Positions 3,547 through 39,870 are shown, numbered from the stretch's first letter. The stretch: DNA of 64,000 nucleotides from an uncultured delta proteobacterium (GCA_963696385.1 CAVOKF010000007.1:160001-224000); one strand, 5' to 3'. Translations and numbers: made by a program. The notes: generated from the sequence alone by a model not told the origin.

Positions 3547-5634
3547 TCACCGAGACGTGCGGAGCGGGCACACGCCCCCCGATTTGCGGTACTCGCGCTG
3601 CACGGCCGCCACAAGGTGCCCGTCGGCCATCGGCGTCCGCTCGCCGAACGCGAGCACCTGAGCGTGGAGTACCGCGTTGCGGATCTGCCCCCCGGTTAGC
3701 TGACATCGGCTGGCAACCTCCCGAAGCAGAGGCAGCGACGCGGCGTGAGCGGGCGGCAGGTGCGTCTGCCAAAGCCGAAACCGCTCGGCGACGTCCGGTG
3801 CGTGGAAGTCGACGACGACGTCCATCCGCCGTTGGAACGCGGTATCGATGTGGTCGCCGGCGTTCGTGGTGACCACGACGATTCCCTCGAACGTCTCCAG
3901 GCGCTGCAAGAGGAAGTTCGTCTCGAGGTTGGCGTAGCGGTCCGTCGAACTCTGCACCCCCGTGCGGCGCGCGAGCAGCGCGTCCCCCTCATCGAGAAGA
4001 AGCACGACGTCGAGCTCCTCGGCGAGTTCGAACACGCGCCCGAGGTTCTTCTCGGTCTCTCCGATGTATTTGTTGACGACCGACGAGACGTCGAGTCGAT
4101 AAAGATCCTTGCCGAGTGTCGAAGCGAGGATTCTGGCCGCGAACGTCTTTCCTGTGCCGCTCGGGCCCTGAAAGAGAACGCGAAGGCCGCCGCCGACCTT
4201 CGATCCGAAGGCAGCGCCGAGGTTCTGGCCGAGCTCTTCGCGAGCGCGACAGCGGACCGTAAGCTGATCGAGCTCGCCGCGCGTCTCCGCGCTGACCGAC
4301 AGGTCCCCCCAATCGCCTCCGACATCGAGCCGCGACGCCAGCGTCTCGAGCGCCTGGCGGTGCAGAGACCGGGCGGCCAAGCGGACATCCGCAACTGTGA
4401 CGGGGGGGTCCGTCACGGGGGGCGATAGGGCACCCCTCGAGCGCTCCGCCACGCCGGGAGCGGCGCCCGCCGGTCGGCGCGCCAGGAGTGCGTACGACCG
4501 AGCCATGCGGGCCACCGTCCGAAGGTTGCCGCTCGCCATTCGAAACGCCGTAGCAAGATCGTCGACCGACTCGGCCTGCGCCGGCAGCACCGCGCGCCAG
4601 TGTTCGCGCCGCTCGGCGGGGCTCGGCAGGTCCAGCGTGATCGCAATCGCTCGCTCGACGGCGGTGCCCGTCACGCCCCCCTGTCGCCCCGTCACGACGA
4701 ATATGGGACCGGCGTACGCGCCCGGTCGCTCCAGGTCCACCGACTCTCCGGGCGCGAGGTCCAAGACGACAACCGGCACCGCACCCAGCAGCGTGCAGAG
4801 CGACCCGGCGGTGCGAAGCCGCCTCTCCTCGGGCTTGCCGATCGAGTCGATCTCGAGGACCCCGGCGCAGAGCGCGCAGGCGAGGGCACCGGCGACCGTG
4901 CGTCGGCCGTTGTGTCGTGGGCCCCGGACGATGACGCCCGCGACCTCGCTCGCGGCCAGGAGCTCCGGCAAGCGTTCGATAAGCTCTCGAGCCGCGGGCG
5001 CCAGGACGAGCGCGTCGAGCGACGTGAGCGACGAGGCCGACCGGTACCGAGCCCACGGCAGCGGCGTCTCCGATGCCTCGCCGCGCATCGCGTCCCAGAT
5101 CGGCGCCGCGACTTGCAGGCCCCACTGAGCGCGCGCTGCGTCCAGGTTCGACGTCGTGACCAGCCCGAGTTCGCCGAGCCTGCGAAGGGCCGCGCGCACG
5201 CCCGGAGTTCCGCGACGGGCCGCCCAGTCGTGGAGCAGCCCCGCCGTCGGGCGCTGCTGGCCCGCGATGCCGTGGAGCGCCTCGAAGACGAATCCGAAGC
5301 GAGCGTCCTCGTCGGCGAGGCCGATCATCGCGAGCAGGACAAGGTCGTCGATCTCCAGACCCGCTGCGCGACGGAGGTTGGCGATCGGCAACGGAACAGA
5401 GGCCCACGCCTCGAAGATCGCGATCGCCGAGAGGCAGTCGTCCCGCGTCGCGAGGCCGCTCCGGGAAAGATCCGCCGCGTAGCCCGAGAGAAAGGCGAAC
5501 TGGCGCTCGACGAGATCGCGAGAGCCGATCGTCGCGTCGAGGTGCAGAAGCAGAGAGTGAACGGCCCCGAGGAAGAAGAGGCGGAAGTGCTCTTCGGGAA
5601 GGGATACGGAAGTGGGTTTAGGCAAAACGTTCAC
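3547..5634 (-). CDS. eCIS AAA+ ATPase (Afp15/Pvc15-like)
   Basis: Walker A GPSGTGKT, Walker B LLLDEGD, KYIGETEKNL and RYANLETNFLLQRLE; degenerate first AAA domain (GPRHNGRRT). Confidence 0.92.
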   Translation of the reverse strand: MNVLPKPTSVSLPEEHFRLFFLGAVHSLLLHLDATIGSRDLVERQFAFLSGYAADLSRSGLATRDDCLSAIAIFEAWASVPLPIANLRRAAGLEIDDLVLLAMIGLADEDARFGFVFEALHGIAGQQRPTAGLLHDWAARRGTPGVRAALRRLGELGLVTTSNLDAARAQWGLQVAAPIWDAMRGEASETPLPWARYRSASSLTSLDALVLAPAARELIERLPELLAASEVAGVIVRGPRHNGRRTVAGALACALCAGVLEIDSIGKPEERRLRTAGSLCTLLGAVPVVVLDLAPGESVDLERPGAYAGPIFVVTGRQGGVTGTAVERAIAITLDLPSPAERREHWRAVLPAQAESVDDLATAFRMASGNLRTVARMARSYALLARRPAGAAPGVAERSRGALSPPVTDPPVTVADVRLAARSLHRQALETLASRLDVGGDWGDLSVSAETRGELDQLTVRCRAREELGQNLGAAFGSKVGGGLRVLFQGPSGTGKTFAARILASTLGKDLYRLDVSSVVNKYIGETEKNLGRVFELAEELDVVLLLDEGDALLARRTGVQSSTDRYANLETNFLLQRLETFEGIVVVTTNAGDHIDTAFQRRMDVVVDFHAPDVAERFRLWQTHLPPAHAASLPLLREVASRCQLTGGQIRNAVLHAQVLAFGERTPMADGHLVAAVQREYRKSGGVCPLRTSR

Positions 5635-7616
5635 AGTCCAAGGTCCGTGTGAGGCAGCTTGCCGTTAAAGACCAGCGCCGCAGCCGAGACATTGGAAGTG
5701 CCGTGGAGCAGATGGCTTGTTCGCGAAAGCAACAAAGCATCCACGACAACTTCTCTCGCGCCAAGCCCATACCCGAAATGGGTAGGGCGGCCGTCGTGGG
5801 ATCGACGAGCCGATGTGTGGATCACCCTGTCGCCGTAGGTTGTCTTCATTCGATCGAGAAAGCGCCCGCAGTCAGTTGCGACGAAGACCCGAAGCTCAGG
5901 TCGCGTCGAGATCTGAGCGTCTACCAAAGCCTTGTAGCGGTCGAACGAAGGAGGTATGGCCTCTCCGATTTTGTCGGTGCCCCGGTAGTGGACTCCAATC
6001 ACCGCGCGACCCGCGAACTCGCGCGCAAAGTAGTCGTCCACCTGCGACCGCACCTCTCGGCGCGGATGAATGTAGCGCTCGACAAGGCTCGCAGAAATCT
6101 CACGTTGTCGATTGTTTATGCGCCCGCCATACCCGATGTCCTCCGAAAGGTAGTCGGCGCGCACGACCGCTCGGTCCGCTAGCTTCCGTTGCAGCGTGGG
6201 CGCGTCGAGCGCCTCCAGTGCGACGGGATCCGGATAAATGTCTTCGATGCCGAGACCAAAGACGGGGAGGAATGAATACTCCCATGCGTTTCGAGCGCCA
6301 TTTTGTCCAGCGTCGTCCCAGTAACAAACGTGTCGGTTTAGGTAAACCACCGGGATCAACCCATCGCGCTCCGCCAACTGGAGGTGGCCAAGGACCTGAA
6401 AAAACATGGAAAACATGCCGCAGCCCGGCCGAGCCGCGCTAACCAGAACGCAAGCGTGGCTATTGGCGGGACCCTCCGGATGCGGCGCTTGGCGCTCGCG
6501 GCCCGAGGACTCCCCGGCTCGTGACAGGCGCTTGGCCACCAGCATCACTTGCGTCGGAAAGGTCACCCGATCGCCTGCGGCGCCGTGCAGGGAGAACACC
6601 TCAAATGAGGTGTTGGCAGCAGTAGGCAACGGAATGATCGCTGTCCGATGTCCTAATGAAGCAAGTTGCCGGATCATAGCCTGGCCTCCGTCCCACTCGG
6701 TGCCGCACAGGACGAAGAGCGTTCCTGAGGTCCGAAACTCGACCACAACAGGCGAGACTCGCGACGCCACGACCTGCGTGAACCACTTTCCCAGTAGAGG
6801 GCCCGGGACGGCTCGGAACGGCCGAAGGGTGTTGCAGTGGGAAGAGACGCCAGGGAGCAAGCGCTCGATCAAATACCCCATGGTCTCGCTAAAGGTCACC
6901 TCAGCGCAGGCATCGGCACCGAGCTCGGACGTAGGACGTGGGGGAGAAGTCGCGATATAGTCCTGAATGAAACGCGCTTCGACCTCGCGTACGGGTCCGG
7001 TCAATCGCCGGCCCTCGTCATGCCGCACGCCGCTTAGGTGCAGGTGGTGCATTCGCACCGATCGCGAGGGGTTCTCCAGCGCTAGGCCAGCAGCACCGGC
7101 CTCGTAAGCGAGGCGGTTCTCACAACCCGGCAAGCCGAGATGCCAATCGCTCGGGAAGCTTGGAAGCGGCGTCTGGAAGATCCAAGCGTCCTGGCTCCAT
7201 GGGTGCTCGAAGAAGACCGCGCTCCCGTCGGACTGAACATCCCAGCGTGAAAGGCACAGAAGCTTCCCCCCGAGGTTGAACCCCTCGAGCAACGCAAGCG
7301 TGTGATCGAAGTAGATGTCATTGTTGGCAAGGATCACTCTTCGGTCCGGAAGCCACCGGTTCGCGTGCGCGAAAAGATCGTGATAGGTGAGCCGCCGTCC
7401 ATGGTGCACGAGCCGTGCTTTGGGGTCGCGGAGCACCGGGTAGGCCTTCACGTCGACAGGCTCCTCTAGAAACACGTGCACCTCTGCGATGTGCTCGGTC
7501 GCAAGGTTGCGCCGCAGGCAATCCACGAACTCCTCCGTACGTGCGGCGGATCGGTCCGGATAGAAACCAACCAGCAGGGCAAACTCAAAAAAGGGCATGC
7601 GTTGCCCACTTCCCAT
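5631..7616 (-). CDS. Multi-domain glycosyltransferase: N-terminal GT-A-like domain plus C-terminal NodZ/GT23-like fucosyltransferase
   Basis: N-terminal ILANNDIYFD, LSRW, SQDAWIF, GCENR. C-terminal IGVHYRGTDK, VFVATD, DALLLSRT...GTSNVS. Stop codon overlaps the ATPase GTG start. Confidence 0.75.
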   Translation of the reverse strand: MGSGQRMPFFEFALLVGFYPDRSAARTEEFVDCLRRNLATEHIAEVHVFLEEPVDVKAYPVLRDPKARLVHHGRRLTYHDLFAHANRWLPDRRVILANNDIYFDHTLALLEGFNLGGKLLCLSRWDVQSDGSAVFFEHPWSQDAWIFQTPLPSFPSDWHLGLPGCENRLAYEAGAAGLALENPSRSVRMHHLHLSGVRHDEGRRLTGPVREVEARFIQDYIATSPPRPTSELGADACAEVTFSETMGYLIERLLPGVSSHCNTLRPFRAVPGPLLGKWFTQVVASRVSPVVVEFRTSGTLFVLCGTEWDGGQAMIRQLASLGHRTAIIPLPTAANTSFEVFSLHGAAGDRVTFPTQVMLVAKRLSRAGESSGRERQAPHPEGPANSHACVLVSAARPGCGMFSMFFQVLGHLQLAERDGLIPVVYLNRHVCYWDDAGQNGARNAWEYSFLPVFGLGIEDIYPDPVALEALDAPTLQRKLADRAVVRADYLSEDIGYGGRINNRQREISASLVERYIHPRREVRSQVDDYFAREFAGRAVIGVHYRGTDKIGEAIPPSFDRYKALVDAQISTRPELRVFVATDCGRFLDRMKTTYGDRVIHTSARRSHDGRPTHFGYGLGAREVVVDALLLSRTSHLLHGTSNVSAAALVFNGKLPHTDLGL

Positions 7617-7663: not shown

Positions 7664-10600
7664 TCATTTCTTGACTTCGTACGTCTCGAGAGCTTCGTCG
7701 ATTTGGTTGTTTACTGCTTTCTTACTAAACAAAGGCGTTAGAGCGCCTGTCTTCGTATCTATCTCATCTGCGCTGCAGACCATCGCAGAGGGGACGAAAG
7801 CCTCCTGATCGATGATCTTATCGACAATGTCCGCCTTTTTTCTTATTCCCGGATTGAGTGAGTTTTTTGCGTATGCGGCTGTTCGCGCTCTGTCATAACG
7901 AGGCACTACTTCATATCTAATGACCTTTTTCTCATCAAGGACTTTTCTTTTGACCAGCTGTTCCACCTGTATCAAGTGTTGAGCGTTCCCGCTTCGGGAA
8001 AGCGGTGTAAGATTGTTCCACGTATTTCCAGGACCATGCAGTAAACGATTGAGAAGATGACCCAAAACATAGTAACTTCCGTCCTTGTTTCTGCGCAGAT
8101 TCAGAATGTCGAAATTCTCGTTGCTCACGGAGGGGGTACTCCCAGGTGGTCCTTTCTTGGTAAGCCTGAGAACCAACATCGACGTTGCGTAGCCGTGGCT
8201 AGTCAGGCCGCCAAACTGCGGCGCAGTCGACTCGAGGAGCCCACCGAAGATGGAGGGCAGGATACCAGTCAGCACCTCGAGCTTCGTTTGAATTGCCGCC
8301 TTGATCGTCGCCGCTTCATCGTCTTTCAGCGATTTGGACGCTTGCGATCGAATCAGCTTCTCGAGTTCCGTAACGACTTGCAGTGCGCGGACGATCGCCG
8401 GTGAAGACGGTTGCCCCTCGAGCATGGCTCGGAGGCTTCCCGGCGCCTTGCTTGCCATCATGATCTGCGCGCTGCCCGGAGCTCCAGCGACGGAGAGCTC
8501 ATGGCTTTCGTCGTCGATCGTAAGCGACTTGCGGGCGCGCCACCACGCTGCCACCGCCCCTGCTGTAGAGTGTCCCAGGTTTAGGAAGAACGCGTTCGCC
8601 TTTCCAACAATCCACTGGACGGCCGTTTCAAGCGCCTTTTCAACTCGTTCCTGCAGCGCCTTGATCTTCGCGACGATGAAGTCCGTCACGCCCCCGAGGC
8701 CCGCGATCCGCGCTAGGAAGCTGATCACCAGCGTCAGCAGCCCGCTCAGCGTTGACTCCACTCGCGCGGCGGCCGCGCCAATCGCACCCGAGGCAATGGC
8801 GGCGATCGAGTCGATGAACGCAGCCACGACGGCGGCGATCTGCTTCAGGCGCTCGACGAAGAACATGACCGTGTTGTAAATGCCGATGATCGCTTGGATG
8901 AAGGCGCCCACGGGGCTTAGGAGCGAGAGGAGCTTGGTGACGGCCGCCTTCACGACCTTCTCTTCGACGAATCCGAGGATCGCCGAGAGGACCATGTCCT
9001 TCAGGTCGCCGAGCTTGTCCTTGATGACCTCCCACGCCGCCGCGGGCCCGCCCTTGACCAGCGCAACGACGACGTCGAAGCCCGTCTCCATGGCCTTCAT
9101 GATCGTCTCGCCGGTCGGGCCGAGCGCCTTGACGATCATCGCGCGAATCTTGGTCCAGGTGATCCCGAGTACGCTGAGGACGAACTTGCCGATCTCGGCC
9201 AGCGACAGCGCCTGCGGAATGTAGATGCCCGCGCCGCTTAGGGCGCCGGTGAGCCACCCGACGAGCGACGTCTTGAGGTGCGTTCCAAAGTTGGCCGCGA
9301 ACTGCTGGAAGCCGAGTTTGGCGGCGGCCACCAGGTGGCCAGCAAAGGCGATCGGATTCTGGAGGATGGTGTGGAGCGCCCCTCCCGCCTTCTTCAAGTA
9401 AGGCATCACCGCCGGGGCGACGACGTCGAAGATGATCTCCAGGAGGTTCCAGATCGTCCCGCCCGCCCAGGTAATGAACCGCGCGGCAAAGCCGCCGAAC
9501 ACCGCGCCGACCTTGGCGAACGCCCGCGGCACCAGGACGAGGTCGGCGATCTCCAGTGACTTCAAAGCCTGCAGGAACAGAGTCGGCACTTGTCGCACGA
9601 AGCCCAAGAGGTTGTTGAGTGCCGTTTGGAACCAGGCCCAGGCGCGCGCGACGGCGTGGCCCTTCTGGATGTTCTGCCAGATCTCTTCCTGGCCGATCAT
9701 CTTCATGAAGCCGCCGATTAATGTCTCGGCGTTGCGCGGGACCGCCTCCCCCGTGATCGGATTCTTCCCCAGTACGGCGCAGAGCAGATCCCACCCCGCA
9801 CTCTTCGACGCGAGTTCCGCCAAAGGTTGCAGGATGGCATCCTTGACGAAGTGAAGGATGCCGTCGACGAGCCCCTTGCCGAACGCGATGATCTGGTCGA
9901 TCGGCGTCGTGAAGATCGCGACGGCGCGGTTCCAGACGCCCTCCATGTTGAAGACGTCGGACAAGTGGAGCGACTCGATGAAGTCGCTCAACGCTTTCTT
10001 GATGGCACTCCAACTGAGGCCGAGCGAATCGATCTGGCTGCTGATCCAGGTTCCGACCTTGTCGAGGATGCCGTAGGCGTCGAGCGCTTGGGTGATGAGG
10101 GCGCCGCCGGGGAGAAGCTCGATGACGGCGCGCAGGACGTTCGCGGCGGAGCGATCGACCTGGCGAAGATTGATGGGGTTTTTGCCCAGGACGACGGTGA
10201 GCATCCGGAAGCCGGGGACGTCGTTGGCCTTGTTGGCGATCCAGTCGAGGGCATCGTCCTTGCCGAAGCGCTGAATGCCGACGTCGGTTGTGCGCTGGCA
10301 GACGGTGAAGGGGCCCCCCTGCAGCGCGGCGGCGGCGGCTTGACGGGCCTCGCGCTCGTAATGGTCGGCGGCGTCGCGCGAGAGCCTCTGGACGGCGTGA
10401 ACGGCGCCGCGCTGCTGGATGACGTGGGCGACCTCGTGAGCCAAAAGAGCGACGTCGCTGGGGCTCTCGCCGGGACCGAGAAAGATGTGGCGGCCGTGGG
10501 CAAAGGCGCGGGCGCCGACGGCGGTCGCGGCCTTGTGCGCTTTGGCATCGGAGCTCACACGCACGTCGCCGAGTGTGACGCCGAAGGTCGCCTCCAGACG

Positions 10601-10810
10601 CGCCCGGACGGCGGGAGCGAGGGGCTCGCCTCCGCCGGCCCGGTCCGAGATCGCACCGAGAGCCGGCGCCGATGCGGATCGGTGCGCAGGAGGCCCTGCG
10701 CTGAGCATCAACGCGTCCGGCGAGGTGCGCACCGGCCGAGACGTTGCCGGCACGGTTGCGGGCGTGGCGGCGAGCGACGTCAGCGCGGAATGGGCGAGCG
10801 CCGCGGCCAT
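7664..10810 (-). CDS. DUF4157 (eCIS-associated) protein with C-terminal DNA/RNA non-specific endonuclease-like toxin domain
   Basis: GARAFAHGRHIFL...LLAHEVAHVIQQ (HExxH); long helical middle; tip YVLGHLLN...GPGNTWNNLTPLSRSGNAQH (His-Me type). Confidence 0.85.
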   Translation of the reverse strand: MAAALAHSALTSLAATPATVPATSRPVRTSPDALMLSAGPPAHRSASAPALGAISDRAGGGEPLAPAVRARLEATFGVTLGDVRVSSDAKAHKAATAVGARAFAHGRHIFLGPGESPSDVALLAHEVAHVIQQRGAVHAVQRLSRDAADHYEREARQAAAAALQGGPFTVCQRTTDVGIQRFGKDDALDWIANKANDVPGFRMLTVVLGKNPINLRQVDRSAANVLRAVIELLPGGALITQALDAYGILDKVGTWISSQIDSLGLSWSAIKKALSDFIESLHLSDVFNMEGVWNRAVAIFTTPIDQIIAFGKGLVDGILHFVKDAILQPLAELASKSAGWDLLCAVLGKNPITGEAVPRNAETLIGGFMKMIGQEEIWQNIQKGHAVARAWAWFQTALNNLLGFVRQVPTLFLQALKSLEIADLVLVPRAFAKVGAVFGGFAARFITWAGGTIWNLLEIIFDVVAPAVMPYLKKAGGALHTILQNPIAFAGHLVAAAKLGFQQFAANFGTHLKTSLVGWLTGALSGAGIYIPQALSLAEIGKFVLSVLGITWTKIRAMIVKALGPTGETIMKAMETGFDVVVALVKGGPAAAWEVIKDKLGDLKDMVLSAILGFVEEKVVKAAVTKLLSLLSPVGAFIQAIIGIYNTVMFFVERLKQIAAVVAAFIDSIAAIASGAIGAAAARVESTLSGLLTLVISFLARIAGLGGVTDFIVAKIKALQERVEKALETAVQWIVGKANAFFLNLGHSTAGAVAAWWRARKSLTIDDESHELSVAGAPGSAQIMMASKAPGSLRAMLEGQPSSPAIVRALQVVTELEKLIRSQASKSLKDDEAATIKAAIQTKLEVLTGILPSIFGGLLESTAPQFGGLTSHGYATSMLVLRLTKKGPPGSTPSVSNENFDILNLRRNKDGSYYVLGHLLNRLLHGPGNTWNNLTPLSRSGNAQHLIQVEQLVKRKVLDEKKVIRYEVVPRYDRARTAAYAKNSLNPGIRKKADIVDKIIDQEAFVPSAMVCSADEIDTKTGALTPLFSKKAVNNQIDEALETYEVKK

Positions 10811-29806: not shown

Positions 29807-29828
29807 CGCGAGGCGCCTTTCGCCGTCT

Positions 29829-31996: not shown

Positions 31997-32460
31997 CAGG
32001 ACTGCCCACGGAACGTCAGCGACTCGTATGCGACTTGAAGCTCCTCGATCGCGACCCCGCCGTCCTTGGCATTGAGGGGTGGGGCCTTGAGCTTTTGCGG
32101 CAGGCAGCGCGCGAGCACGAAATGCGCCAGGGTCGTGCCGTTTTGGGGGCTCGTGACGACGACGCTCGCGTCGTAGCGAAGTCCGGGATTCGCAAGAGCG
32201 GCGGAGACCCAAGTCCACAAGTCGAAGTTGCTGCTCATGCCCCGCTTGAGGGTGAGCGTCCCGAGCACCGTCGGTCCGGCGAGGCGAACCTGCGACATGT
32301 TGTTGCCGCCCTCACGGATCGTCTTGACCTCCATGCCGACCTCGAGCCCGTCGCATTCCGAAAAAGCGGCGGCGCACAAGCTCGACGAGGCGCCCGGAGC
32401 GCTGATCTCGACCGAGAAGCTGAAGGCGACGAACGGATAACCCGGGATGGAGTTGGCCAT
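31996..32460 (-). CDS. Tail tube protein 2 (T4 gp19-like)
   Basis: YPFVAFSFSVEI, FSECDGLE, IREGGNN, LTLKRG, VAIEEL.VAYE. Confidence 0.93.
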   Translation of the reverse strand: MANSIPGYPFVAFSFSVEISAPGASSSLCAAAFSECDGLEVGMEVKTIREGGNNMSQVRLAGPTVLGTLTLKRGMSSNFDLWTWVSAALANPGLRYDASVVVTSPQNGTTLAHFVLARCLPQKLKAPPLNAKDGGVAIEELQVAYESLTFRGQS

Positions 32461-32462
32461 GG

Positions 32463-35263
32463 TCAACTGCTCTGCGCCACGGTGAGCTGATTTCCACTTT
32501 GAATGAGCCGCACCGTCAGAAACGACAGCGGCCAGGAAGGCGCCACCTGAAGCTCGACGACGAAGCGCCCGAGATCCACGGAATTGGGGGGATTGACACT
32601 GGCGTCCGTGATCACACGGTACGCGTCGCTGGCGGTCGCCCCCGCCAGCGCGCCCCGGCTGAACAGGCCGTCGAGCAGCGACGTGAACCGGCGCTGCACC
32701 ATGCGCGCCAGCCGTGGGCCGTTCGGCTCGAACACGTACGCGGTCCCGAGGCTGAGCGCCGAGCGACGCAAGAGCATGAGCAGCCGTCGCACGTTGATCG
32801 GCACCAGGTCCGGATCGTCGGTGAGCGTATCCGCGCTCATGGCCATCAAGCCGCGCGCTTCCGCGCGGATCCGATTGACCGGCTGCTCGTCCAGGACGGC
32901 CCACACGGCGTCGGAAAGGGCCGGCGAAAGCCCGAGAATGCTGGCGTCGAGCGCCTCGTTCGCGGGTGCGATCCAGGCGCCGCGCGCGAGCGTGCGGCGC
33001 GCGTAGACGCCCGCAATCGCCCCGTCCGGCGGCGTGGTGCGGAGCGGCCCCGTCGACACGTCCCGGCCGATGATCCACGGATGGTAGACGGCGCCGTACC
33101 CGAGCGTCCGCGTGGACTGGTTGGCGCACAGGGTGCTGACGTAGGCCGCCGCATCGGCGGCGCTCTGCGATTCGGGCAGCGAAAGGATCGCGAACAGGTC
33201 GCCGCGAGCCGCGCACAGCGTCAAAAGCGCGCCCTGGACGACGGGCAACGCCGGCGCGGGGTTGTCGACGTCTTGCTTCGCCACCCAGCCCGATCCCAGA
33301 AGGACCGAGACGGCGATCGCCGCCGAGTAGCCGCTCGTGAGCGTTCCGGCCGTCGCGCTCGCGCGGACGAAGAACACACCGGGCGTGTGGCTGTAGACGA
33401 CGAGCGTGGTCTGCGCCGTCGTGTAGGTCACGACCCCGCTGCCGAATTGGGGATCCGGCGACTCCTCGACGGAGTATTGCGTGGCTCCGTCGACGGCGCC
33501 CCACGACAGGACGAACGTACCGTTCGCGTCCGGCGGCTGGGCGATGGCGACGTTGGGCAGCGAAAGCGCCCGCTGCGCGCAGGCGTAGAAGGCGCCGTCG
33601 TTGCCGGGAACGACGGGCTGCGCCAGGGCGCCCTCCGGCGCCGACGGCGACGAGGCCGCGGTCCAGCCCGGCAACGTGGCGTCCGGCACGGCGATGATCG
33701 TGGCCTCGTCGACGCCGAGGGCCGCATGGATGCCCCGGAGGCGACGCGGATCGCTCGACTGGTACTGGATGAAGTTGGCCTCGGCGAGAAGCTCGGCAGC
33801 GCCGACGTTGACGAGGTCCGGATCGACGAACAGCGACGCGTCGAACGAGGACAGCCCGTCGCGTTCCAGGCTGCTCCCGGTCTGGGCAAAGGCCGGCAGT
33901 GGATAGTCGGGCGTGTACGGCATGCCGATCGGAAGGAACGTGATGTCCGGTCTGCCGCAGGCCGCGAGATCGAAGCGCGGTTCGGTCACCTCGTTCCAAA
34001 GCGGTGCGAGTTCGTCGGCGCGGTTGCGAAGCTCGACGGCTCGAGCGTCGGTGTCGGTCGTGTCGGATGTGCCGCGAAAGAGCTCCTCGTCGCTCGGCAA
34101 CGCCCAGAAGGCGTACGAATGGGAGGGATCGAACCCGAGGTCGCTGATCGGGGTCGGCGTCTCGGATCCCGTCTGGGTCTGGAGCTCGAGCCGCAGGCGT
34201 TCCACCTCCAGGCCCCCCGGCGGCGACGACACGGGCAAAGGTCCCGGCGCCGGGTCGACGAACAGGCCCTGACCGGTCAAAAGGACGGCGCCGGAAAGGG
34301 GAGGCGAGAAGAGCGCAGGAGGCGAGGCGACGGTCGGGGGGATCCCACGAGGTCCACCGCGACCACCTCCGTGACCGTGACCCACAGGTCGCCCCCGGGG
34401 AACTGGACGCCCAGCATCGTCCCGGCCGCGGGCGCGGCGCTGAGGGGCGCCGCCAAGAGCAGCTGCACGGTCCCTCCGCTGGCCTGTTGGAGCGTGGCCG
34501 CGATCCCGCCGGCGACGGTGGTGCCCATCGCGCCGGGAGGCACGCTCGCAAGGCAGGTGCGAAACCAGTTCACGTTCGGCGTTCCGTCCGCTTGGACGAC
34601 GGTCGAGAGGCTCAGGGTGGCGGCGTTCGTCTCCGTCGGAACGATCGGGTTGACGGCGCTCACCACGAACATGGCGACGCGCGTCGCGATCGCTCCGTCG
34701 TAGAAGGTGAGACGCATCAGGTCGCCGACGACGACGTCGTCGAGCGCGCTCGTGACCACGTCGAGCGAAGCGGGAAATCCCTCGAGTCCCGCCCATCCAG
34801 TCACGCCGAGCGCCAGCGGTCGGCTGACAAGGACGGTGGCCACGAGAAGATCGTCGGACCAGCTGCCTTGCGAACGCGCCATGGCGGTTGCAGGCGCAAT
34901 CGCTCCGTCCGGCGAGAGCGAGACCATCCCGCAGACGGGAAACTCGTTGGTCGCCCCATCGCCCGCGACGCGCACGACCCAGCAGCGCTGCCCGCCGTTC
35001 AGGAAGTAGGATCGCACGGCGGGCGCGAGGTATGCGTTCATCGTTGCGCCCTGGACCGGATCCCAGGCGAGCGCCGCGTCGGCGCCGAAGATCGACTCGA
35101 AGTGCGACGGATCGTCGACGGCCACGGGGATTTGCAGCGGCCCCGACGCGGAAAATCCCACGAAGAGTGCGATATCCATGCGCGGCAACACCTGGGCCAG
35201 CGGCGGCGGCAAAACCTCGAACCGCACACCGGCGGCCCGACGCGGTGAGCGCGCCATGGCCAT
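32463..35263 (-). CDS. Tail sheath protein 2 (about 933 aa), split by a 1-bp frameshift at 34336-34341
   Basis: N-part LPRMDIALFVGFS..GP, YFLNGGQRCWVVRV; C-part YGAVYHPW, GAWIAPAN, INVRRL, VFEPN. One more base in the 6-bp run joins the frames. Confidence 0.88.
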
Positions 35264-35266: not shown

Positions 35267-35734
35267 CTAGGCCACCTTCAGGTACTCGTAGGCGATCGTC
35301 AGCTCCTCCATCGCGACGTCCGTGCCCTTGGCGTTCAAAGGCCCGATCGAGTGCTTGATCGGCCGGGCGTTGCTGAGCGTCCAGGTCAGCACCGCGGAGG
35401 TCTGGTCCGACTCCGTGTTCAACGTGATCGTCACGTTGTAGACGGCCGAGGAGTCGACCGAACCGGTGCGGACCGCGTCAAACCAAGTGTACAGAGAAAG
35501 CATGCCCACGACGCCGCGTTTCAGGGTGACGTCCGTGACCTTGTTCAGGCCCGTGATCTTCTGAACGCGCAGCAAGGGATCGTTGCCGTTGCGGTACTCG
35601 TGGACCGCTACCTCCTGGGCCAGGGCGCTGCACTCCTGAAAGCCCCCGAGGGGCTGCGTGGCATCCACGCCGGAGAGGTTGAGATCGACGGTAAAGTTGA
35701 ATTGCGAGTACGGGGTCGCTCGTTGCAAGGCCAT
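35267..35734 (-). CDS. Tail tube protein 1 (T4 gp19-like)
   Basis: PYSQFNF, GGFQECS, EYRNGN, VTLKRG, VAMEEL.IAYE. Confidence 0.95.
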   Translation of the reverse strand: MALQRATPYSQFNFTVDLNLSGVDATQPLGGFQECSALAQEVAVHEYRNGNDPLLRVQKITGLNKVTDVTLKRGVVGMLSLYTWFDAVRTGSVDSSAVYNVTITLNTESDQTSAVLTWTLSNARPIKHSIGPLNAKGTDVAMEELTIAYEYLKVA

Positions 35735-35786: not shown

Positions 35787-37796
35787 CTACGAAGTCCGAT
35801 CTCCAGTCCACTGGCCGATGCGGAAGATCACGAATTCCGCCGGGCGGAGCGCGGCGACGCCGACGAGACAAACCAGCCTACCGAGGTCGAGATCTTGCTG
35901 GCTCATCGTGGTCTGATCGCACCGGACGAAGAAGGCTTGCTCGGGCTTGGTCCCGGCCAGGGCACCGGACTGCCATTCGCTCGTCAGAAACGCCGCGATC
36001 GACGCCTGCACCTTGGCCCAGAGTCTCACTCCGTTCGGTTCGAACACCGCCCACTGCGTCCCGTCGTCGATCGATCGCTCGAGGTAGGCGAAGTACCGCC
36101 GCAGGTTGACGTAGATCCAGTCGGTGTCCGAGCTGACGGTGCGCGCTCCCCAGACGAGGTACCCGCGCCCCTCGAAGAAGCGCAAGCAATTGATGCCCAG
36201 AGGGTTCAAGATGTCTTGCTGGGCCTTGTTGACGTTGACGTCGAAGCCCTGCGCGAGCGCAATGACTTCGTTGGCGGGCGCCTTGTAGACGCCTCGCGTG
36301 TTGTCGTTGTTCGCGTAGATCCCGCATATGAATCCGCTGGGCGGCAGGTAAATCGGATTGCTCGTGATCGGATCGAGCACGCGAACCCACGGGTAGTAAA
36401 GCGCGGCGTAGCTGCTGTCGAACTGACCCCGCAGCGCGCTGACCTGGTTGAGGTTCTCGCCGTTGCCGCTGTCGAGCACGGCGATCCGGTACTTCATGTT
36501 CTCGCAGTGGGCCACGAGCTCCTGCATGATCCCGAGCGCGACTCCGTAGGCCACGGAACCCGGGCCCCCGAGGTCCATTTGGTAGGTCGAGCCGGGCGCC
36601 GCGACGATCGAAATGTCCTCGATGTCCTCGAACTGAACGAGGCCGGTCTTCGGGCTCGGCACGATGTCGGTCGGATCGCCCGTTCCTTCGTAGTCCGACA
36701 AGGCGGGCAGAGCCCCGTCCGTCCCCCCCTGAAGCTGCACGGTGATCGTCCGCTGGGCCGTCGTGGAGCTGAGGGTCTGAAGCACGTTCGGCAGCGTGGC
36801 GGCGCTGCTCGGGGTGGCGGGCGACGGGTAGGCCGCAAAGAAGGCTTGCAAAAGGCCCAGGCCGTCGAGAGTTCCGTTGGGACCGGGCTGTTCGAATTTG
36901 ATGGGAAGATCCCTTCCGTAAGCTGGGTCGGGCGTGCTCGGGTTGGTTGGGTCGGGCCCGAACACGCCGACGAACGAATCGTACGCGTCGCTGGTCTGGT
37001 GCGACGGATCGAGGGCCAGATCGGTCCACGTCTGCGACGGCTGGTTGATGTCAAGCAGGGCGGTGACCGTGACCGAGAGCGTGATGACGCGGATTTCCTG
37101 ACTGGGGGAAAGCGCACCGATCGCGATCGACGCGGCCGGGCTCGCGGATGATGCGTCTTGGACGAAGAGCCAATTCTGCGCGATCGGGTCCCAGGTGGCG
37201 AGGTACGCCGGAAAGTTACTCGCGGTGGACGTGGTCGAAACGAAGCCCGGCGCCGACGAGGAGGTCGGGCGGATCATGACGACGTCGAACTCCTCGACCG
37301 ACCCCACTTGGGGCGTCCCGCTCTTGTTGAAGGAAAGTACGTTGGGGCCGACCATGAGGGTGATCTGCACCTGCATGTTCCCGTAGAGGCCCGGGTAGCG
37401 CGCGCAGAGGCTGGGACCGGTGGGCGGCGATCCGAAACCCAGCGACGCCCGAGCGAGGGTGGGGGCGGTAGCGGGATTGGAGGAAACGATTCGCGAGACG
37501 TAGAGCTGCGTGCCCCCCTGGGTGAAGAACGCCCGCGCGGCGTGCCACATGAAATTGGTAATCGACGTCGGCGGGCCGCCCGCAGCGCCGGGCTGCACCA
37601 CCTGCAACGGCTGACCGTCCCCGTAGGTGCGCTCGTAGTCATCGAGGCTGGAGATCATCTCCAGTTCGAGGTTGTAGGGGCCGTAGCGTGTGGGCCCTAT
37701 GAAGCCCGTAGTCGTCGTCCCGACGCCGGCGATGGCCTTGGTGCTCCGATAGGAGACTTCTTCGATATAGACGCCGGGAGACAGGTATTCCGCCAT
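35787..37796 (-). CDS. Tail sheath protein 1
   Basis: YLSPGVYIEE, YAALYYPW, RGVYKAPANE, VWGART, WAVFEPN, PAEFVIFRIGQ. Confidence 0.96.
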   Translation of the reverse strand: MAEYLSPGVYIEEVSYRSTKAIAGVGTTTTGFIGPTRYGPYNLELEMISSLDDYERTYGDGQPLQVVQPGAAGGPPTSITNFMWHAARAFFTQGGTQLYVSRIVSSNPATAPTLARASLGFGSPPTGPSLCARYPGLYGNMQVQITLMVGPNVLSFNKSGTPQVGSVEEFDVVMIRPTSSSAPGFVSTTSTASNFPAYLATWDPIAQNWLFVQDASSASPAASIAIGALSPSQEIRVITLSVTVTALLDINQPSQTWTDLALDPSHQTSDAYDSFVGVFGPDPTNPSTPDPAYGRDLPIKFEQPGPNGTLDGLGLLQAFFAAYPSPATPSSAATLPNVLQTLSSTTAQRTITVQLQGGTDGALPALSDYEGTGDPTDIVPSPKTGLVQFEDIEDISIVAAPGSTYQMDLGGPGSVAYGVALGIMQELVAHCENMKYRIAVLDSGNGENLNQVSALRGQFDSSYAALYYPWVRVLDPITSNPIYLPPSGFICGIYANNDNTRGVYKAPANEVIALAQGFDVNVNKAQQDILNPLGINCLRFFEGRGYLVWGARTVSSDTDWIYVNLRRYFAYLERSIDDGTQWAVFEPNGVRLWAKVQASIAAFLTSEWQSGALAGTKPEQAFFVRCDQTTMSQQDLDLGRLVCLVGVAALRPAEFVIFRIGQWTGDRTS

Positions 37797-38401: not shown

Positions 38402-38995
38402 TTGGCGACGTATCACGCAATAGCGGCGATCGGTCAGGCGGTTCTCGGACTGCTGGAACAAGCACGCATCGGGTCTGAATTCGATGGCTGTGACTTCGAG
38501 CTCTATCAATCGTCCAACTTTCATGCACCGATGGACGAAGGATTGTCGCTTTTTCTGTACAACACCGTCGTCAGCACGGCACGACGCAACGTTCCAGGGA
38601 GGGTCTCACCCGACGGCCGAAGACACCGTCCGCCGCTCCCTCTCGACCTTTACTACCTACTCACTCCGTGGGCGAAGACGGCGACGGCGCAGCACCGACT
38701 CTTGGGCTGGGCCATGCGGGTGATCGATGATAGTGCGACGCTTCCCGCGTCGCTGCTCAACCACTATGGCCCGGAACCGGACACGTTCTGGCCGGACGAA
38801 ACGGTCACGCTCGTCAACGAGCCCATCTCGTTGCAAGACATCTACAACATCTGGGAGATCAACAAGCAGAACGTGCAGGTGTCGGTCGCCTACGTCGCAC
38901 GCGTCGTCTTCATCGATTCCACGGTCGACGATGTCCAGGTCCTTCCGGCGCAAGCTCGTTCGTTCGAGACCGCGAAGAAGGGCCAATCACGATGA
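38402..38995 (+). CDS. DUF4255 / Pvc16-like tail terminator (cap) protein
   Basis: LSLFLY, PPLPLDLYYLLT.W, LLGWAM, SVAYVARVV; TTG start. Confidence 0.88.
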   Translation: MATYHAIAAIGQAVLGLLEQARIGSEFDGCDFELYQSSNFHAPMDEGLSLFLYNTVVSTARRNVPGRVSPDGRRHRPPLPLDLYYLLTPWAKTATAQHRLLGWAMRVIDDSATLPASLLNHYGPEPDTFWPDETVTLVNEPISLQDIYNIWEINKQNVQVSVAYVARVVFIDSTVDDVQVLPAQARSFETAKKGQSR

Positions 38996-39870
38996 CGAAT
39001 ACGGTCCGTTCCGACACCCTGGATCGCGTCGCTCCGCTGGGCGTGCGCTTTTGGGATCCCGTGGAGCACGTGTTTGTGACCGACGGCTTGGTCGTCCGTG
39101 TGCGACTCGCCGGTTCGCGGGAGAGTCGCGCGGCCAAGGCCAACGCTTCGGGTATCTTCACCGTCCAGAACCTCCCGAGGCTGGGTGCAGCGGAGGTCGG
39201 GCTCGGCGACGCTGCGTACTGGGCGAAAGTCGCGACCCTGAGTTTCGTGGTCGAGGTTCACGACTCGCACGGGCAGTTCATGCCATTTTCCTTCCCTGCG
39301 CAACTGCCCGCGCGCGGGTTGTTCGTTTGGACGTGTGCGCTCGCTTCGCCCCCCGTGTCCGGCTGGTTGGCAGACGGAGCGCCGCTTTTTTCCGCTCCGG
39401 CGCGCGCCATCGCTCCGATGCGGGCCGTGATTCGCGCCCAAATGCAAGACGCGGTCAGCGGGCAGTTCGCTGCCGGCGCGGTGCTCGGGGCCACGGTCGG
39501 CGCGGGGGAGATGGTACGCGGAGTCGCCGACGCCCAGGGGCGCGTCGCGATCGTTCTGCCTTACCCCGAGCCGCTCGATTTTCCGCTGGTCGGCGACGGT
39601 TCGCCGCCGCCCTACGCGCCGGTGGGGGGGCCCTTCTCGAGCTACACGTGGCCGGTCGTGCTTGCGGCGCAATACACGCCGGCGACGGTGCTCCCAAAAT
39701 ATCCGGATCTTTGCACAACGCTGAGCCAACCCACCGCCCAACTTTGGGGGGACACGGTCGGCACGCCTCTCGCCACGCAGACGCTGACGATGGGGGTCGA
39801 TCTGGTCGTCCGCAGCGTCGACGCGACGAACGCCCAGTCGCTGTCCGTCTTGCTCGTGAAATCCAACTGA
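38992..39870 (+). CDS. eCIS-associated protein with carboxypeptidase-regulatory-like beta domains
   Basis: Overlaps the DUF4255 stop; LGVRFWD, ANASGIF, GVADAQGRVAI..PYPE; two SPP motifs. Confidence 0.6.
   Translation: MTNTVRSDTLDRVAPLGVRFWDPVEHVFVTDGLVVRVRLAGSRESRAAKANASGIFTVQNLPRLGAAEVGLGDAAYWAKVATLSFVVEVHDSHGQFMPFSFPAQLPARGLFVWTCALASPPVSGWLADGAPLFSAPARAIAPMRAVIRAQMQDAVSGQFAAGAVLGATVGAGEMVRGVADAQGRVAIVLPYPEPLDFPLVGDGSPPPYAPVGGPFSSYTWPVVLAAQYTPATVLPKYPDLCTTLSQPTAQLWGDTVGTPLATQTLTMGVDLVVRSVDATNAQSLSVLLVKSN

Follow-up and report, generated by a model that had tools for sequence, protein, structure and literature searches.

An eCIS gene cluster with embedded glycosyltransferase genes

Positions 3547-39870 of the window (the whole stretch of 64,000 nucleotides that was analysed, from a Polyangiaceae genome) hold the gene cluster of an extracellular contractile injection system (eCIS), a phage-tail-like machine, of the Tail_P2_I/TssK-like baseplate type. 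The one cluster encodes the sheath, the inner tube, the spike/hub and the gp25-baseplate J-wedge set (Pfam: Phage_sheath_1/1C, T4_gp19, CIS_tube, Phage_base_V, GPW_gp25, Baseplate_J and Tail_P2_I), and the eCIS markers that separate such loci from phage and T6SS are all found (AAA, 1.2e-23; Pvc16_N, 7.9e-31; eCIS_core, 3.8e-22). No capsid, portal or terminase was found by Pfam (run on some 20 ORFs of the locus and a few beside it) among the 41 genes called across the window. The gene order, i.e. sheath, tube, hub, spike, gp25, baseplate J, Tail_P2_I and then the fibre-anchor genes, ATPase, Pvc16 and DUF4157 cargo, is that of the eBAP3-type eCIS, with a Tail_P2_I/TssG-like adaptor and TssK-like fibre anchors, as far as set out in PMC12923769. 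The features are listed below with coordinates, strand, product, best match and number of Ser-Pro-Pro (SPP) tripeptides.

3547..5634 (-): AAA+ ATPase (Cis15-like); Pfam AAA E 1.2e-23; 1 SPP (LSPP, residue 404)
5631..7616 (-): putative glycosyltransferase, multi-module; NodZ/FUT8-like C-terminal part, Pfam below cut-off; 1 SPP (TSPP)
7664..10810 (-): eCIS_core (DUF4157) protein with nuclease domain, putative cargo; Pfam eCIS_core 3.8e-22, Endonuclea_NS_2 5.8e-6; 0 SPP
10823..13180 (-): double GT2 glycosyltransferase (GT2x2); Pfam Glycos_transf_2 2e-41 in two stretches; 0 SPP
13196..15565 (-): 789-aa ORF, Ser/Pro-rich, family unassigned; weak Ig-like matches; start placed at 14803 by the gene caller; 1 SPP (PSPP)
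15617..16834 (-): IPT/TIG-domain protein, 405 aa; Pfam TIG 1.5e-4; 0 SPP
16873..19155 (-): 760-aa protein, lineage-conserved as a neighbour of the ATPase gene, with homologs in related loci; candidate tape measure (the atlas lead, CIS_TMP, is no higher than 0.78); 0 SPP
19166..20503 (-): second CIS13-like (TssK-like) baseplate protein, 445 aa (f445); N-terminal match to NCBIfam CIS13_fam 1.5e-6, far below cut-off; 1 SPP
20522..21883 (-): CIS13-like fibre-anchor protein, 453 aa; NCBIfam CIS13_fam 8e-10, below cut-off; 4 SPP
21893..24658 (-): CIS12/Tail_P2_I wedge protein, 921 aa; Pfam Tail_P2_I 4.9e-8, NCBIfam CIS12_fam 8.6e-36; 4 SPP
24725..26974 (-): baseplate J; Pfam 7.2e-12; 0 SPP
26982..27371 (-): gp25-like wedge protein; Pfam 1.5e-23; 0 SPP
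27375..29090 (-): 571-aa protein, hydrophobic (TM) stretch at the C-terminus; 4 SPP, in segments that are variable and rich in Pro
29087..29887 (-): spike (Phage_base_V OB domain); Pfam 9e-24; 0 SPP
29829..30899 (-): VgrG-related hub protein; NCBIfam VgrG_rel 9.1e-29; 0 SPP
31106..31996 (-): CIS_tube-domain protein; Pfam CIS_tube 6.1e-21; 0 SPP
31996..32466 (-): tube protein (gp19-like); Pfam 2.6e-27 on the longer ORF; 0 SPP
32463..35263 (-): sheath 2, frame-split into ORFs of 328 aa (34277-35263) and 605 aa (32463-34280); 1 SPP as called, 4 when read through
35267..35734 (-): tube protein; Pfam 5.8e-29; 0 SPP
35787..37796 (-): sheath 1, 669 aa; Pfam sheath domains; 1 SPP (GFGSPPTG, residue 123)
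38402..38995 (+): Pvc16_N cap protein; Pfam 7.9e-31; 0 SPP
38992..39870 (+): 292-aa protein, family unassigned, lineage-conserved beside Pvc16; 2 SPP

The split of sheath 2 is a frame change at a C6 run near 34340; in the related loci G009 and G026 the ortholog is one unbroken ORF (913 and 934 aa, respectively), and homology runs through the frame change. Given the C-terminal TM segment of the 571-aa protein, this eCIS may work in a membrane-anchored mode. The 453-aa protein is called 'CIS13-like' here, a name short of proven membership, as it scores 38.5 bits against CIS13_fam (cut-off 370) over the N-terminal 60 residues only; its best Foldseek matches are three chains (AA-AC, deposited as All3314 protein) of the Anabaena CIS baseplate, PDB 7b5h (E 1e-3, TM 0.13-0.19), followed by TssK (E 8e-3).

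The glycosyltransferase (GT) genes are embedded among structural genes that share their strand, at distances of 4-15 bases from the adjacent genes. GT2x2 reaches 142 bits against Glycos_transf_2 (cut-off 23.3) over two domains, with an ortholog in G009 (51% identity) and homologs in G837, L081, L111 and G188. The product of 5631..7616 consists of an N-terminal module of ~215 aa in common with GT2+Glyco_transf_7C proteins, a middle module and a NodZ/FUT8-like C-terminal part, for which the Pfam matches to FUT8_N_cat (6.5e-5) and NodZ (2.6e-4) stay below cut-off (22.3 and 20.4 bits against 27.6 and 28.3); PDB NodZ matches residues 506-637 (E 1.1e-4), and the atlas lead is GT11/O-FucT (0.88). The GT2, GT8 and GT23-like enzymes named in the preliminary description are accordingly reduced to a firm GT2 and a sub-threshold GT23-like candidate, as Glyco_transf_8 has no Pfam or NCBIfam match at E <= 1 in the unknown ORFs or at 1e-3 in the rest.

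Ser-Pro-Pro enrichment in the window and its lineage

The 23 intact ORFs of the locus (11,731 aa) contain 20 SPP, and reading sheath 2 from frame A into frame B adds three (GSPP, ASPP and FSPP, ~34298-34345), giving a locus total of 23. With the frameshift read through in this way, the original count of 23 SPP in 10 proteins (10 GSPP, 4 ASPP) is reproduced. The varied Ser codons also described there are found again (TCG 13, TCC 3, and TCA, TCT, AGC and AGT 1 each), as are the near absence of SPP from the 40-64 kb flank (1 in 6,290 aa with our own gene calls, against 2 in ~6,900 aa) and its absence from the tubes, hub, spike, gp25, baseplate J and DUF4157 protein (0 in each). The outer particle proteins carry the motif in the form (G/S/A/T)-Ser-Pro-Pro: both sheaths, the 292-aa protein, the CIS13-like anchor, the 571-aa TM protein and the CIS12 wedge.

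SPP is enriched both over shuffled sequences and over the whole proteome, the two comparisons that the preliminary description had proposed. Relative to our own whole-genome gene call (5,208 proteins, 547 SPP, 1.88 M aa), SPP in the locus is 6.2-fold enriched and ranks first of 674 tripeptides tested (Poisson 3e-10), and GSPP is the most enriched tetrapeptide (9 vs 0.445 expected). Whole-protein shuffles of the locus give a mean of 5.36 SPP, with 0/5000 reaching 20, whereas shuffles within 12-residue windows give a mean of 7.96, with 1/5000 reaching the observed count. Ser stands before Pro-Pro in 20 of 80 cases in the locus (25%) versus 547 of 8,327 in the proteome (6.6%; binomial 1.7e-7), and the order SPP (20) is preferred to PSP (9) and PPS (8).

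Enrichment extends to the eCIS lineage as a whole, the density being conserved across phyla while most positions shift. In Myxococcota, Acidobacteriota and Nitrospirota, seven loci that are complete or nearly so together hold 109 SPP against 24.1 expected. The observed/expected values per locus are 19/5.0, 14/4.9, 18/2.1, 15/2.4, 13/2.9, 22/3.4 and 8/3.4, and 0, 1, 0, 0, 0, 0 and 14 per 1000 shuffles, respectively, match the observed count; the weakest, G598, shows its 8 vs 3.4 despite the presence of GTs. At G009, the 9 SPP outside CIS13 (5.2 expected) are not significant (238/3000 shuffles). By protein class, the seven loci have 25 SPP in sheath 2 (observed/expected 6.8), 24 in CIS13 (13.5), 21 in the 292-aa class (10.8; 1.9 expected), 11 in the 571-aa class (3.6), 10 in sheath 1 (6.6) and 9 in CIS12 (3.2). 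SPP is missing from baseplate J, where 3.1 would be expected, and from tube 1, gp25, hub, CIS_tube and cap; tube 2 has a single SPP (in G837), and the 129 ORFs that are accessory to these loci or flank them stay at background (11 vs 10.1 expected). In six unrelated particle protein families Ser precedes Pro-Pro at 16-35%, compared with the 6.6% background. SPP columns differ between G000 and G009 orthologs, and in sheath 1, sheath 2 and the 292-aa protein the positions drift across the seven loci at a maintained density. Close homologs of the 571-aa protein have 24 SPP vs 6.4 expected, and distant ones 5 vs 4.5. Overall, the motif is kept over 48% to 75% GC, three phyla and protein identities of 35-40%.

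Outside the lineage, twelve eCIS loci of this class show no enrichment, with 9 SPP vs 9.5 expected (35,602 aa), or 18 vs 19.1 with all ORFs in their spans included. In 9/12 of these outgroup loci no GT was found within 10 kb beyond the labelled genes (ORFs of at least 180 aa; Pfam on 144 ORFs, BLAST vs 20 GT references). GTs are present near outgroup loci G284 and G256, and G188, where alone among the outgroups a GT2x2 homolog lies inside the locus (E 7e-69), has three SPP in its sheath, including TSPP and an SSPP that aligns to the GSPP loop of the window sheath 1. Within the enriched lineage, GT/methyltransferase (MT) cassettes lie in the operon of 6/6 loci with a visible distal end (G451 and the divergent G893, in which that end is not visible, were left out of the count):

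G000: GT2x2 and the NodZ-like protein
G009: GT2x2, two GT32-like proteins, MT+GT25
G450: 1617-aa GT2+7C+GT32-like+MT protein
G837: FkbM-MT/NodZ-like, triple GT2, two phosphomannomutases
G672: GT2, GT9, GT4+MT, GT9
G598: 7C-like protein, GT2+GalT

GT content varies by locus and no single GT is common to all; in relatives, this end of the locus is occupied by different sets of GT, methyltransferase and sugar-nucleotide genes. The cassettes adjoin toxin-immunity genes, and might act on the producer surface or the cargo instead of the particle, or be payload. The suggested co-occurrence of SPP enrichment with GT genes is positive at the level of the lineage (7 enriched vs 12 unenriched loci), and is an association and not causation, resting on one clade plus G188 with related loci that are not independent.

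Glycosylation and other readings of the motif

The 120 CIS13-like homologs contain 324 SPP vs 30.8 expected, with at least one in 103, and 150 representatives at <=50% identity contain 455 vs 42.1, with at least one in 135; 410 of the 455 fall in the first 350 residues. This family has 4,683 cluster representatives at E <= 1e-3. In the window protein the four SPP occupy two loops (residues 117-131 and 231), and throughout the family they cluster in two loops of the putative, shoulder-like baseplate-binding N-domain. In a model of a canonical member, the best-conserved site, D-F-M-F-G-S-P-P, and the loop-1 SPP lie in connectors (pLDDT 83-86), and low model confidence (pLDDT 54) is limited to the upstream SP[LP] run. 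SPP falls in coil regions of two models.

We consider it possible, with a probability of about 0.4, that Ser-Pro-Pro is an O-glycosylation acceptor site and that the operon GTs build a particle coat. A cytoplasmic operon-encoded GT would start an O-linked glycan on Ser-Pro-Pro, the remaining GT/MT enzymes would extend and then cap it, and the released particle would be glycan-coated at the sheath and baseplate periphery, for shielding, adhesion or identity. We infer that the GTs act on the particle and that the Ser of SPP is the acceptor, and the purpose of the coat is likewise conjectural; we know of no GT family that targets Ser-Pro-Pro. The sequon proposed in the preliminary description gains from the enrichment and the GT co-occurrence, and loses from the missing GT8 and from the best-conserved CIS13-like site, where Ser (85/120) is replaced by Pro (19) or Ala (8) in 27/120 and by Thr in only 3/120, and the central Pro is kept in 113/120. 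As replacement by Pro/Ala far exceeds that by Thr with the central Pro retained, the pattern is closer to a structural constraint than to a need for a hydroxyl.

That substitution pattern suits the main rival, an explanation that we regard as unlikely, yet serious, in which unmodified Ser-Pro-Pro has a structural or docking role and the GT cassettes serve a producer surface glycan, the cargo or a payload. The motif would be a helix-stop/strand-start connector or a stiff polyproline spacer linking extra sheath domains, and in CIS13 it would present the hydrophobic D-F-M-F-G peg for loop-mediated TssG-like/TssK-like baseplate assembly. The well-modelled conserved sites between helix and strand, the grouping of SPP in the two N-domain loops and the alternation of SPL with SPP (115 vs 324 in 120 homologs) are all consistent with this, and the SPP-free proteins are compact single-domain parts with few linkers. 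Loop-mediated attachment is on record for Tail_P2_I/eBAP3 systems in section 8 of PMC12923769, and binding of the baseplate by the N-terminal domain of Cis13 is mentioned in PMC8894136. A fold-specific connector, however, does not explain the Ser preference in six unrelated families or the drift of positions at kept density; the f445 paralog, with its weak, sub-cut-off CIS13-family N-terminus, is without the motif (7 vs 6.0 expected in 80 metagenome loci), as are other eCIS lineages of equal GC richness and with multi-domain sheaths, and the enrichment outlasts 12-residue-window shuffling. The 6/6 GT co-occurrence would moreover be coincidence.

Modification by other host enzymes independent of the GTs, for instance phosphorylation of the Ser by a Hanks-type kinase or hydroxylation of a proline, strikes us as improbable. 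Ser followed by Pro and a turnover of positions resembling that of regulated sites would suit it, and some loci have genes for a Ser/Thr kinase, PP2C or FHA protein nearby (a 1191-aa kinase at G009, Pkinase-TPR at G837, FHA and PP2C at G450); such genes, however, are very common in these phyla and also adjoin SPP-free outgroups (Pkinase, PP2C and three FHA at G244, a kinase at G040), whereas the operon has no conserved kinase and a prolyl hydroxylase is seen in none of the loci scanned. We give equally little credence to a functionless lineage habit, e.g. repeated slippage or recombination in Pro-rich loops, with GT cassettes that co-travel for unrelated reasons. SPP and GTs are indeed both traits of what is essentially a single clade, the Pro/Ser/Ala-rich segments that hold most sites are poorly conserved, and G009 loses significance once CIS13 is left out; on the other hand, a habit of this kind sits poorly with persistence over such a range of GC, phyla and identity, varied Ser codons, a preferred residue order, same-operon accessory genes at background and an independent GT2x2 lineage (G188) with SPP at the same sheath loop.

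Returning to glycosylation, we propose, more tentatively than for the acceptor site itself, that a widespread soil-bacterial eCIS lineage makes glycan-coated particles. An initiating GT of the operon would recognise a conserved (G/S/A/T)-Ser-Pro-Pro sequon on the sheath, wedge and fibre-anchor proteins and on the protein encoded beside the cap gene, and a swappable GT/methyltransferase set beside the toxin would give a strain-specific glycan. If true, contractile injection systems would gain their first glycosylated member, and bacterial cytoplasmic O-glycosylation a new sequon.

Comparison with known systems

The O-glycosylation islands of flagellin, pilin and S-layer proteins feature exposed acceptor serines, site turnover and strain-variable glycans. 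Like the window locus, they place variable GT/methyltransferase/sugar-nucleotide sets beside surface-polymer genes, although their substrates are exported filaments or layers and, to our knowledge, no SPP sequon is used in them. In plant extensins, Ser followed by prolines, as Ser-(Hyp)n, is an O-glycosylation signal, which is eukaryotic, secretory and dependent on prolyl hydroxylation, whereas no hydroxylase is seen in the loci scanned. Closer to the present system, the main text on eBAP3-type eCIS in PMC12923769 is without 'glycosyl' or 'proline', and describes in that main text neither an SPP motif nor GT cassettes. The Afp18-like toxin of Yersinia ruckeri is referred to in PMC10598620 as an eCIS-delivered glycosyltransferase toxin. 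As in the window, its GT is encoded in an eCIS locus near cargo genes, but it is a payload acting on host Rho, whereas the GT2x2 of the window starts its GT2 domain at residue 8 and has no DUF4157 domain by Pfam. Glycosylated mycobacteriophage virions were reportedly described by Freeman et al. 2023 (Cell Host Microbe), with the modification demonstrated. 'Extensive glycosylation' of virion proteins is also mentioned in PMC12582341. Mycobacteriophages are infectious phages of Actinobacteria, whereas the window encodes a headless injection device with a putative acceptor motif; in both cases, glycosyltransferases encoded on the element itself would decorate structural proteins of a phage-derived particle that assembles in the cytoplasm.

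Composition of the locus and its SPP motifs

The gene content of the locus is that of an ordinary Tail_P2_I/eBAP3-type extracellular contractile injection system (eCIS), carried by a 6.94-Mb genome of 66% GC (G000).

Features of the eCIS locus and its borders, in window coordinates
3547-39870: the eCIS locus
minus strand, order 1: sheath 1, tube, sheath 2, tube
minus strand, order 2: CIS_tube protein, VgrG-related hub, spike
minus strand, order 3: 571-aa protein with a C-terminal TM segment (27375-29090), gp25, baseplate J
minus strand, order 4: Tail_P2_I/CIS12 wedge, two CIS13-like (TssK-like) proteins (the 453-aa fibre anchor CIS13, 20522-21883, and the 445-aa f445)
minus strand, order 5: 760-aa protein, TIG protein, 789-aa ORF, double GT2 (GT2x2)
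minus strand, order 6: DUF4157-nuclease protein, NodZ/FUT8-like multi-module protein, AAA+ ATPase
plus strand: Pvc16 and the 292-aa protein
34277-34360, minus strand: frame change in sheath 2
1406-3010, plus strand: IS66-family transposase
40076-40552, plus strand: phage-type lysozyme gene

Sheath 2 is broken into ORFs of 328 and 605 aa at a C6 run near 34340. Its orthologs in G009 and G026 are unbroken single ORFs (913 and 934 aa), and homology crosses from one frame to the other; the frame change is either an assembly error at the homopolymer or a real frameshift, inactivating or phase-variable. The transposase lies ∼540 bases past the ATPase end of the locus. The NodZ-like gene and the 789-aa ORF are also lower in GC (0.59), and the two observations together hint that genes have recently moved at that end. 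The lysozyme gene directly adjoins the 292-aa gene and is a candidate for particle release through lysis. The 571-aa protein carries a conserved, strongly hydrophobic C-terminal stretch (residues ∼515-555, ..NFVFWWLPFLKICLP..), an unexpected feature that is out of keeping with a soluble released particle.

The Ser-Pro-Pro (SPP) motif occurs 20 times in the intact ORFs of the locus and 23 times when sheath 2 is read through, and the latter figure, with 10 GSPP and 4 ASPP in 10 proteins, bears out the manual count of the preliminary description. Genes were called roughly across the genome with a codon-score caller of our own, giving 5,208 proteins with 547 SPP in 1.88 M aa. Relative to this proteome the motif is enriched 6.2-fold in the locus; among 674 tripeptides tested it ranks first in enrichment (Poisson 3e-10), as GSPP does among tetrapeptides (9 versus 0.445 expected). 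Shuffles of whole proteins give a mean of 5.36 SPP and reach 20 in 0 of 5000 trials, shuffles within 12-residue windows give a mean of 7.96 and reach 20 in 1 of 5000, and the GSPP count is never reached. The enrichment, for which shuffles and the whole proteome had been proposed as yardsticks, holds against both, and composition alone is thereby ruled out as its source. Residue order matters, with 20 SPP versus 9 PSP and 8 PPS, and PP is preceded by Ser in 20 of 80 cases in the locus versus 6.6% in the proteome (p 1.7e-7). The right flank holds 1 SPP in 6,290 aa. Seven proteins of the whole genome have at least three SPP, three of them in the locus; the other four include one tandem-repeat protein and two low-complexity Pro-rich linker proteins. 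A DNA repeat or GC bias is ruled out, as the Ser codons vary and the motif is kept in loci of 48-75% GC, and wrong reading frames in a GC-rich genome are ruled out by protein-level orthologs for every SPP-bearing ORF checked (CIS13, CIS12, f445, the 571-aa and 292-aa proteins and both sheaths).

The sole protein of the genome exceeding the eCIS proteins in SPP is a 979-aa Cys-rich, secreted-looking repeat protein (G000:C3:410744-413683, minus strand) with 10 SPP. Nine lie in near-identical units (eight N-S-P-P-A-S-C-Y, one N-S-P-P-S-S-C-Y) and one in a C-terminal SSPP, a number owed to repeat descent. After SPP and GSPP, the strongest enrichment among tri- and tetrapeptides of the locus is that of TVT and TVTP (19 versus 3.7); these sit in beta-strand-like runs, mostly of the TIG protein, and resemble normal Ig-fold sequence.

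SPP in related loci and in the CIS13-like family

Seven complete or near-complete loci of the lineage were compared, with proteins labelled via BLAST to the structural genes of the window: two from Polyangiaceae (G000, G009), one from Nitrospirae by annotation (G451) and four from Acidobacteriota (G450, G598, G672, G837), G450 and G837 being Pyrinomonadaceae, likewise by annotation. Together they contain 109 SPP versus 24.1 expected in 57,863 aa (observed/expected per locus, with G598 last, 19/5.0, 14/4.9, 18/2.1, 15/2.4, 13/2.9, 22/3.4 and 8/3.4), and the observed count is reached, for the same loci in turn, in 0, 1, 0, 0, 0, 0 and 14 of 1000 shuffles. The 129 other ORFs of the same stretches carry 11 SPP versus 10.1 expected. 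The SPP observation is confirmed as real in the window and extends to a lineage-wide trait, and the motif is specific to a set of proteins on the outer parts of the particle.

SPP by protein over the seven loci
Sheath 2: 25 SPP, observed/expected 6.8
CIS13: 24 SPP, observed/expected 13.5
292-aa protein: 21 SPP, observed/expected 10.8
571-aa protein: 11 SPP, observed/expected 3.6
Sheath 1: 10 SPP, observed/expected 6.6
CIS12: 9 SPP, observed/expected 3.2
Spike: 3 SPP
Tube 2: 1 SPP (in G837)
Baseplate J: 0 SPP, 3.1 expected
Tube 1, gp25, hub, CIS_tube, cap and TIG protein: 0 SPP

Positions are mostly unconserved: the orthologs of G000 and G009 use different alignment columns, and sites in both sheaths and in the 292-aa protein share regions but not residues. 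Homologs of the 292-aa protein end exactly in SPP in three of the seven loci (AVSPP at L124:15590-16570, AGSPP at L131:3905-4867, AVSPP at L136:13667-14611). The same proteins are tagged in complete loci of other phyla, which rules out that SPP beyond CIS13 is special to the sublineage of the window; metagenome loci seldom extended to the sheaths or the 292-aa gene. A phylum search for close relatives returned only the divergent G893, which has the same gene order and 4 SPP versus 3.1 expected, with its distal end outside view. A search of 401 genomes of the class (G000 included) gave no further match to the 571-aa protein and, for the NodZ-like protein, only a partial C-terminal match in G350; viral contigs searched for close relatives gave one distant match.

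Of 321 genomes of the class, 134 have contractile systems marked by Pvc16_N, a tally that takes in two genomes flagged unpublished (G415 and G385). In one family the figure is 75 of 81, and several genomes have up to six copies. Twelve Pvc16_N loci on long contigs, with 60 kb fetched around each, served as outgroups. Their labelled structural proteins hold 9 SPP versus 9.5 expected (35,602 aa), and all ORFs in the spans 18 versus 19.1.

The motif is also a trait of the CIS13-like family. The 453-aa protein matches NCBIfam at its N-terminus with a score far short of the cut-off, and its best fold matches are 7b5h chains AA-AC (E 1e-3), deposited as All3314 protein, with TssK next; the Anabaena paper gives the name Cis13 to All3316, not All3314. 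A set of 120 homologs drawn from many phyla contains 324 SPP in 61,177 aa versus 30.8 expected, and 103 of the homologs have at least one. A homolog (P0064) is annotated in the cultured Sorangium sp. So ce448. Ser precedes PP in 324 of 767 cases, and the residue after SP is mostly Pro (324) or Leu (115). The sites concentrate in the N-terminal domain at two loops, one often reading SPPxSPPGDFMFGSPP. A profile search returned 4,683 cluster representatives (E ≤ 1e-3), and the best 150 of these (at most 50% identical to one another) contain 455 SPP versus 42.1 expected, with at least one in 135; 410 fall within the first 350 residues (7.8 per 1000 aa versus 1.2 elsewhere), Gly preceding 154 of these 410. 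The C-terminal parts of the homologs (L029, L030, L031, L032) are highly variable and include collagen-like G-x-y repeats, long K/E/T/D-rich repeats and small beta-rich heads.

Glycosyltransferase cassettes

Glycosyltransferase (GT) cassettes are present in 6/6 loci with the distal end in view; the contig of G451 stops at the ATPase.

Cassettes of the six loci
G000: GT2x2, NodZ-like protein
G009: GT2x2, two Gly_transf_sug (GT32-like) proteins, methyltransferase-GT25
G450: 1617-aa GT2 + Glyco_transf_7C + GT32-like + methyltransferase protein
G837: FkbM-methyltransferase/NodZ-like protein, triple-GT2 protein, two phosphomannomutases
G672: GT2, GT9, GT4-methyltransferase, GT9
G598: 7C-like protein, GT2-galactosyltransferase-like protein

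In the window the GT genes sit inside the operon, co-directional with the adjoining genes and separated from them by 4-15 bases. In complete loci they come after the ATPase, the toxin and, in loci that have one, the immunity gene, at 12-18 kb beyond CIS13. In G450 (L123:2020-2571) and G837 (L135:2173-2727) the DUF4157 toxin is followed by a GAD-like/Tdi1-type immunity gene, which suggests antibacterial cargo in these eCIS. From the GT2/GT8/GT23-like set first named for the locus, GT2 stands, the GT23-like member is a NodZ/FUT8 match below threshold, and GT8 was not found; PDB sequence searches of the locus GTs yielded nothing beyond NodZ and generic GT2 relatives. The NodZ-like protein is built of modules, with its N-terminal ∼215 residues recurring fused to GT2+7C proteins and its C-terminal half alone (about 365 aa) or fused to an FkbM methyltransferase (about 815 aa); the two halves recombine widely in soil bacteria (proteins P0170-P0266). 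NodZ-like and CIS13 homologs stand side by side in G837, as confirmed in DNA. A wider co-location of the two, taken from records without DNA, was discarded, with four coincidences against ∼1.4 expected by chance and one of them physically impossible.

The twelve outgroups were searched within 10 kb of labelled genes (Pfam on 144 unlabelled ORFs of at least 180 aa, plus BLAST against 20 GT references), and within these limits no GT was found in nine. G284 has a GT4 2.5 kb past Pvc16, amid unrelated genes, and G256 a weak GT2-like ORF, upstream and on the opposite strand. Within its locus G188 encodes a clear homolog of GT2x2 (E 7e-69), with an FkbM methyltransferase nearby, and it is the only one of the twelve with SPP in the sheath (3); two of the three lie at the loop matching the GSPP of the window's sheath 1, BLAST aligning SSPP to GSPP. 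Neither SPP enrichment nor a GT cassette is seen in three partial eCIS loci (one in G040, two in G059) or in a prophage (G041). The co-occurrence of SPP with GT genes, put forward earlier as a test across eCIS loci, is found in the lineage and in G188, and amounts to one clade plus G188 because related loci are not independent.

A second comparison used 80 metagenome loci, each spanning a CIS13 homolog and 10 kb on either side of it. They were classed as GT+ (4) or GT− (16) by BLAST and by Pfam, the latter covering 47 of the 67 unlabelled ORFs (L090 duplicates L091; L082 was classed without Pfam). Recognisable GTs appeared in just four (L040, L043, L081, L111), and CIS13 SPP density was equal in the two classes (4.70 versus 5.22 per 1000 aa, Mann-Whitney p 0.89). 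Independence of SPP from GTs, as read from these loci, was withdrawn: the equal densities are uninformative because GT genes lie 12-18 kb downstream of CIS13, outside the flanks.

Possible roles of the motif

We place at roughly 0.4 the probability that SPP is an O-glycosylation acceptor for an operon-encoded GT, giving a coated particle. The particle would assemble in the cytoplasm, where the GT would add a sugar at exposed (G/S/A/T)-S-P-P sites, with Ser as the acceptor. The sites concerned would be those on the extra domains of the sheath, on the fibre anchor and wedge, and on the 292-aa and TM proteins. The initiating enzyme would most plausibly be of GT2 type, as every cassette has one; other GT and methyltransferase enzymes would lengthen the glycan and cap it, and as these enzymes turn over from one locus to another, the coats would be strain-specific. 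What the data show is the motif, its specificity, its placement on outer proteins and its company of GT genes; the link to an enzyme, the acceptor and the purpose of a coat are inferred. The glycosylation proposed in the preliminary description gains partial comparative support here and stays a hypothesis. Counted against it are the weak enrichment in G598, the 9 SPP versus 5.2 of G009 outside CIS13 (not significant, 238 of 3000 shuffles) and the lack of any single GT common to all cassettes. Standing beside toxin-immunity pairs, the GTs could alternatively alter the producer's own surface or be payload, for which PMC10598620 offers a precedent in Afp18-like toxins.

The main alternative, which we regard as somewhat less likely, is that SPP is a structural or docking element, either a helix-stop/strand-start connector or a stiff spacer presenting a hydrophobic peg for TssG-like/TssK-like baseplate assembly. 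Loop-mediated assembly of that kind is described for this baseplate type in section 8 of PMC12923769 and in parts of PMC8894136. In its favour, and against glycosylation, at the best-conserved site, D-F-M-F-G-S-P-P, the central Pro is kept in 113 of 120 homologs and Ser in 85, Ser being replaced by Pro (19) or Ala (8) and rarely by Thr (3). A model of the canonical member P0085 (mean pLDDT 79) likewise places PPGDFMFGSP (pLDDT 83) and the loop-1 SPP (83-86) between helix and strand, only the upstream SPLSSPLSS run being poorly modelled (54). In the model of the window's own 453-aa protein both SPP loops are coil (pLDDT 57-65). Other modifications of SPP and a neutral habit of the lineage are lesser alternatives.

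In the literature searched (supplements and subscription papers aside), neither glycosylation of eCIS particles nor an SPP motif is described. The same holds for the SPP/GSPP signature, for its confinement to outer proteins and for the consistent GT/methyltransferase cassettes. Even without sugar, SPP is a previously undescribed, very strong signature of a large protein family (∼10-fold over composition), usable to recognise this eCIS lineage, and it marks loops of importance for something. If the lineage does glycosylate its own sheath and baseplate, this would add a new layer to particle building and recognition. It would also offer a short, portable tag, and the enzymes to go with it, by which cytoplasmic protein assemblies could be decorated. 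Current engineering work adapts eCIS particles for protein delivery, and both stability and targeting depend on the particle surface. The closest functional analogue is the reported glycosylation of mycobacteriophage virions, and the glycosylation islands of flagellin and S-layers provide a further one.
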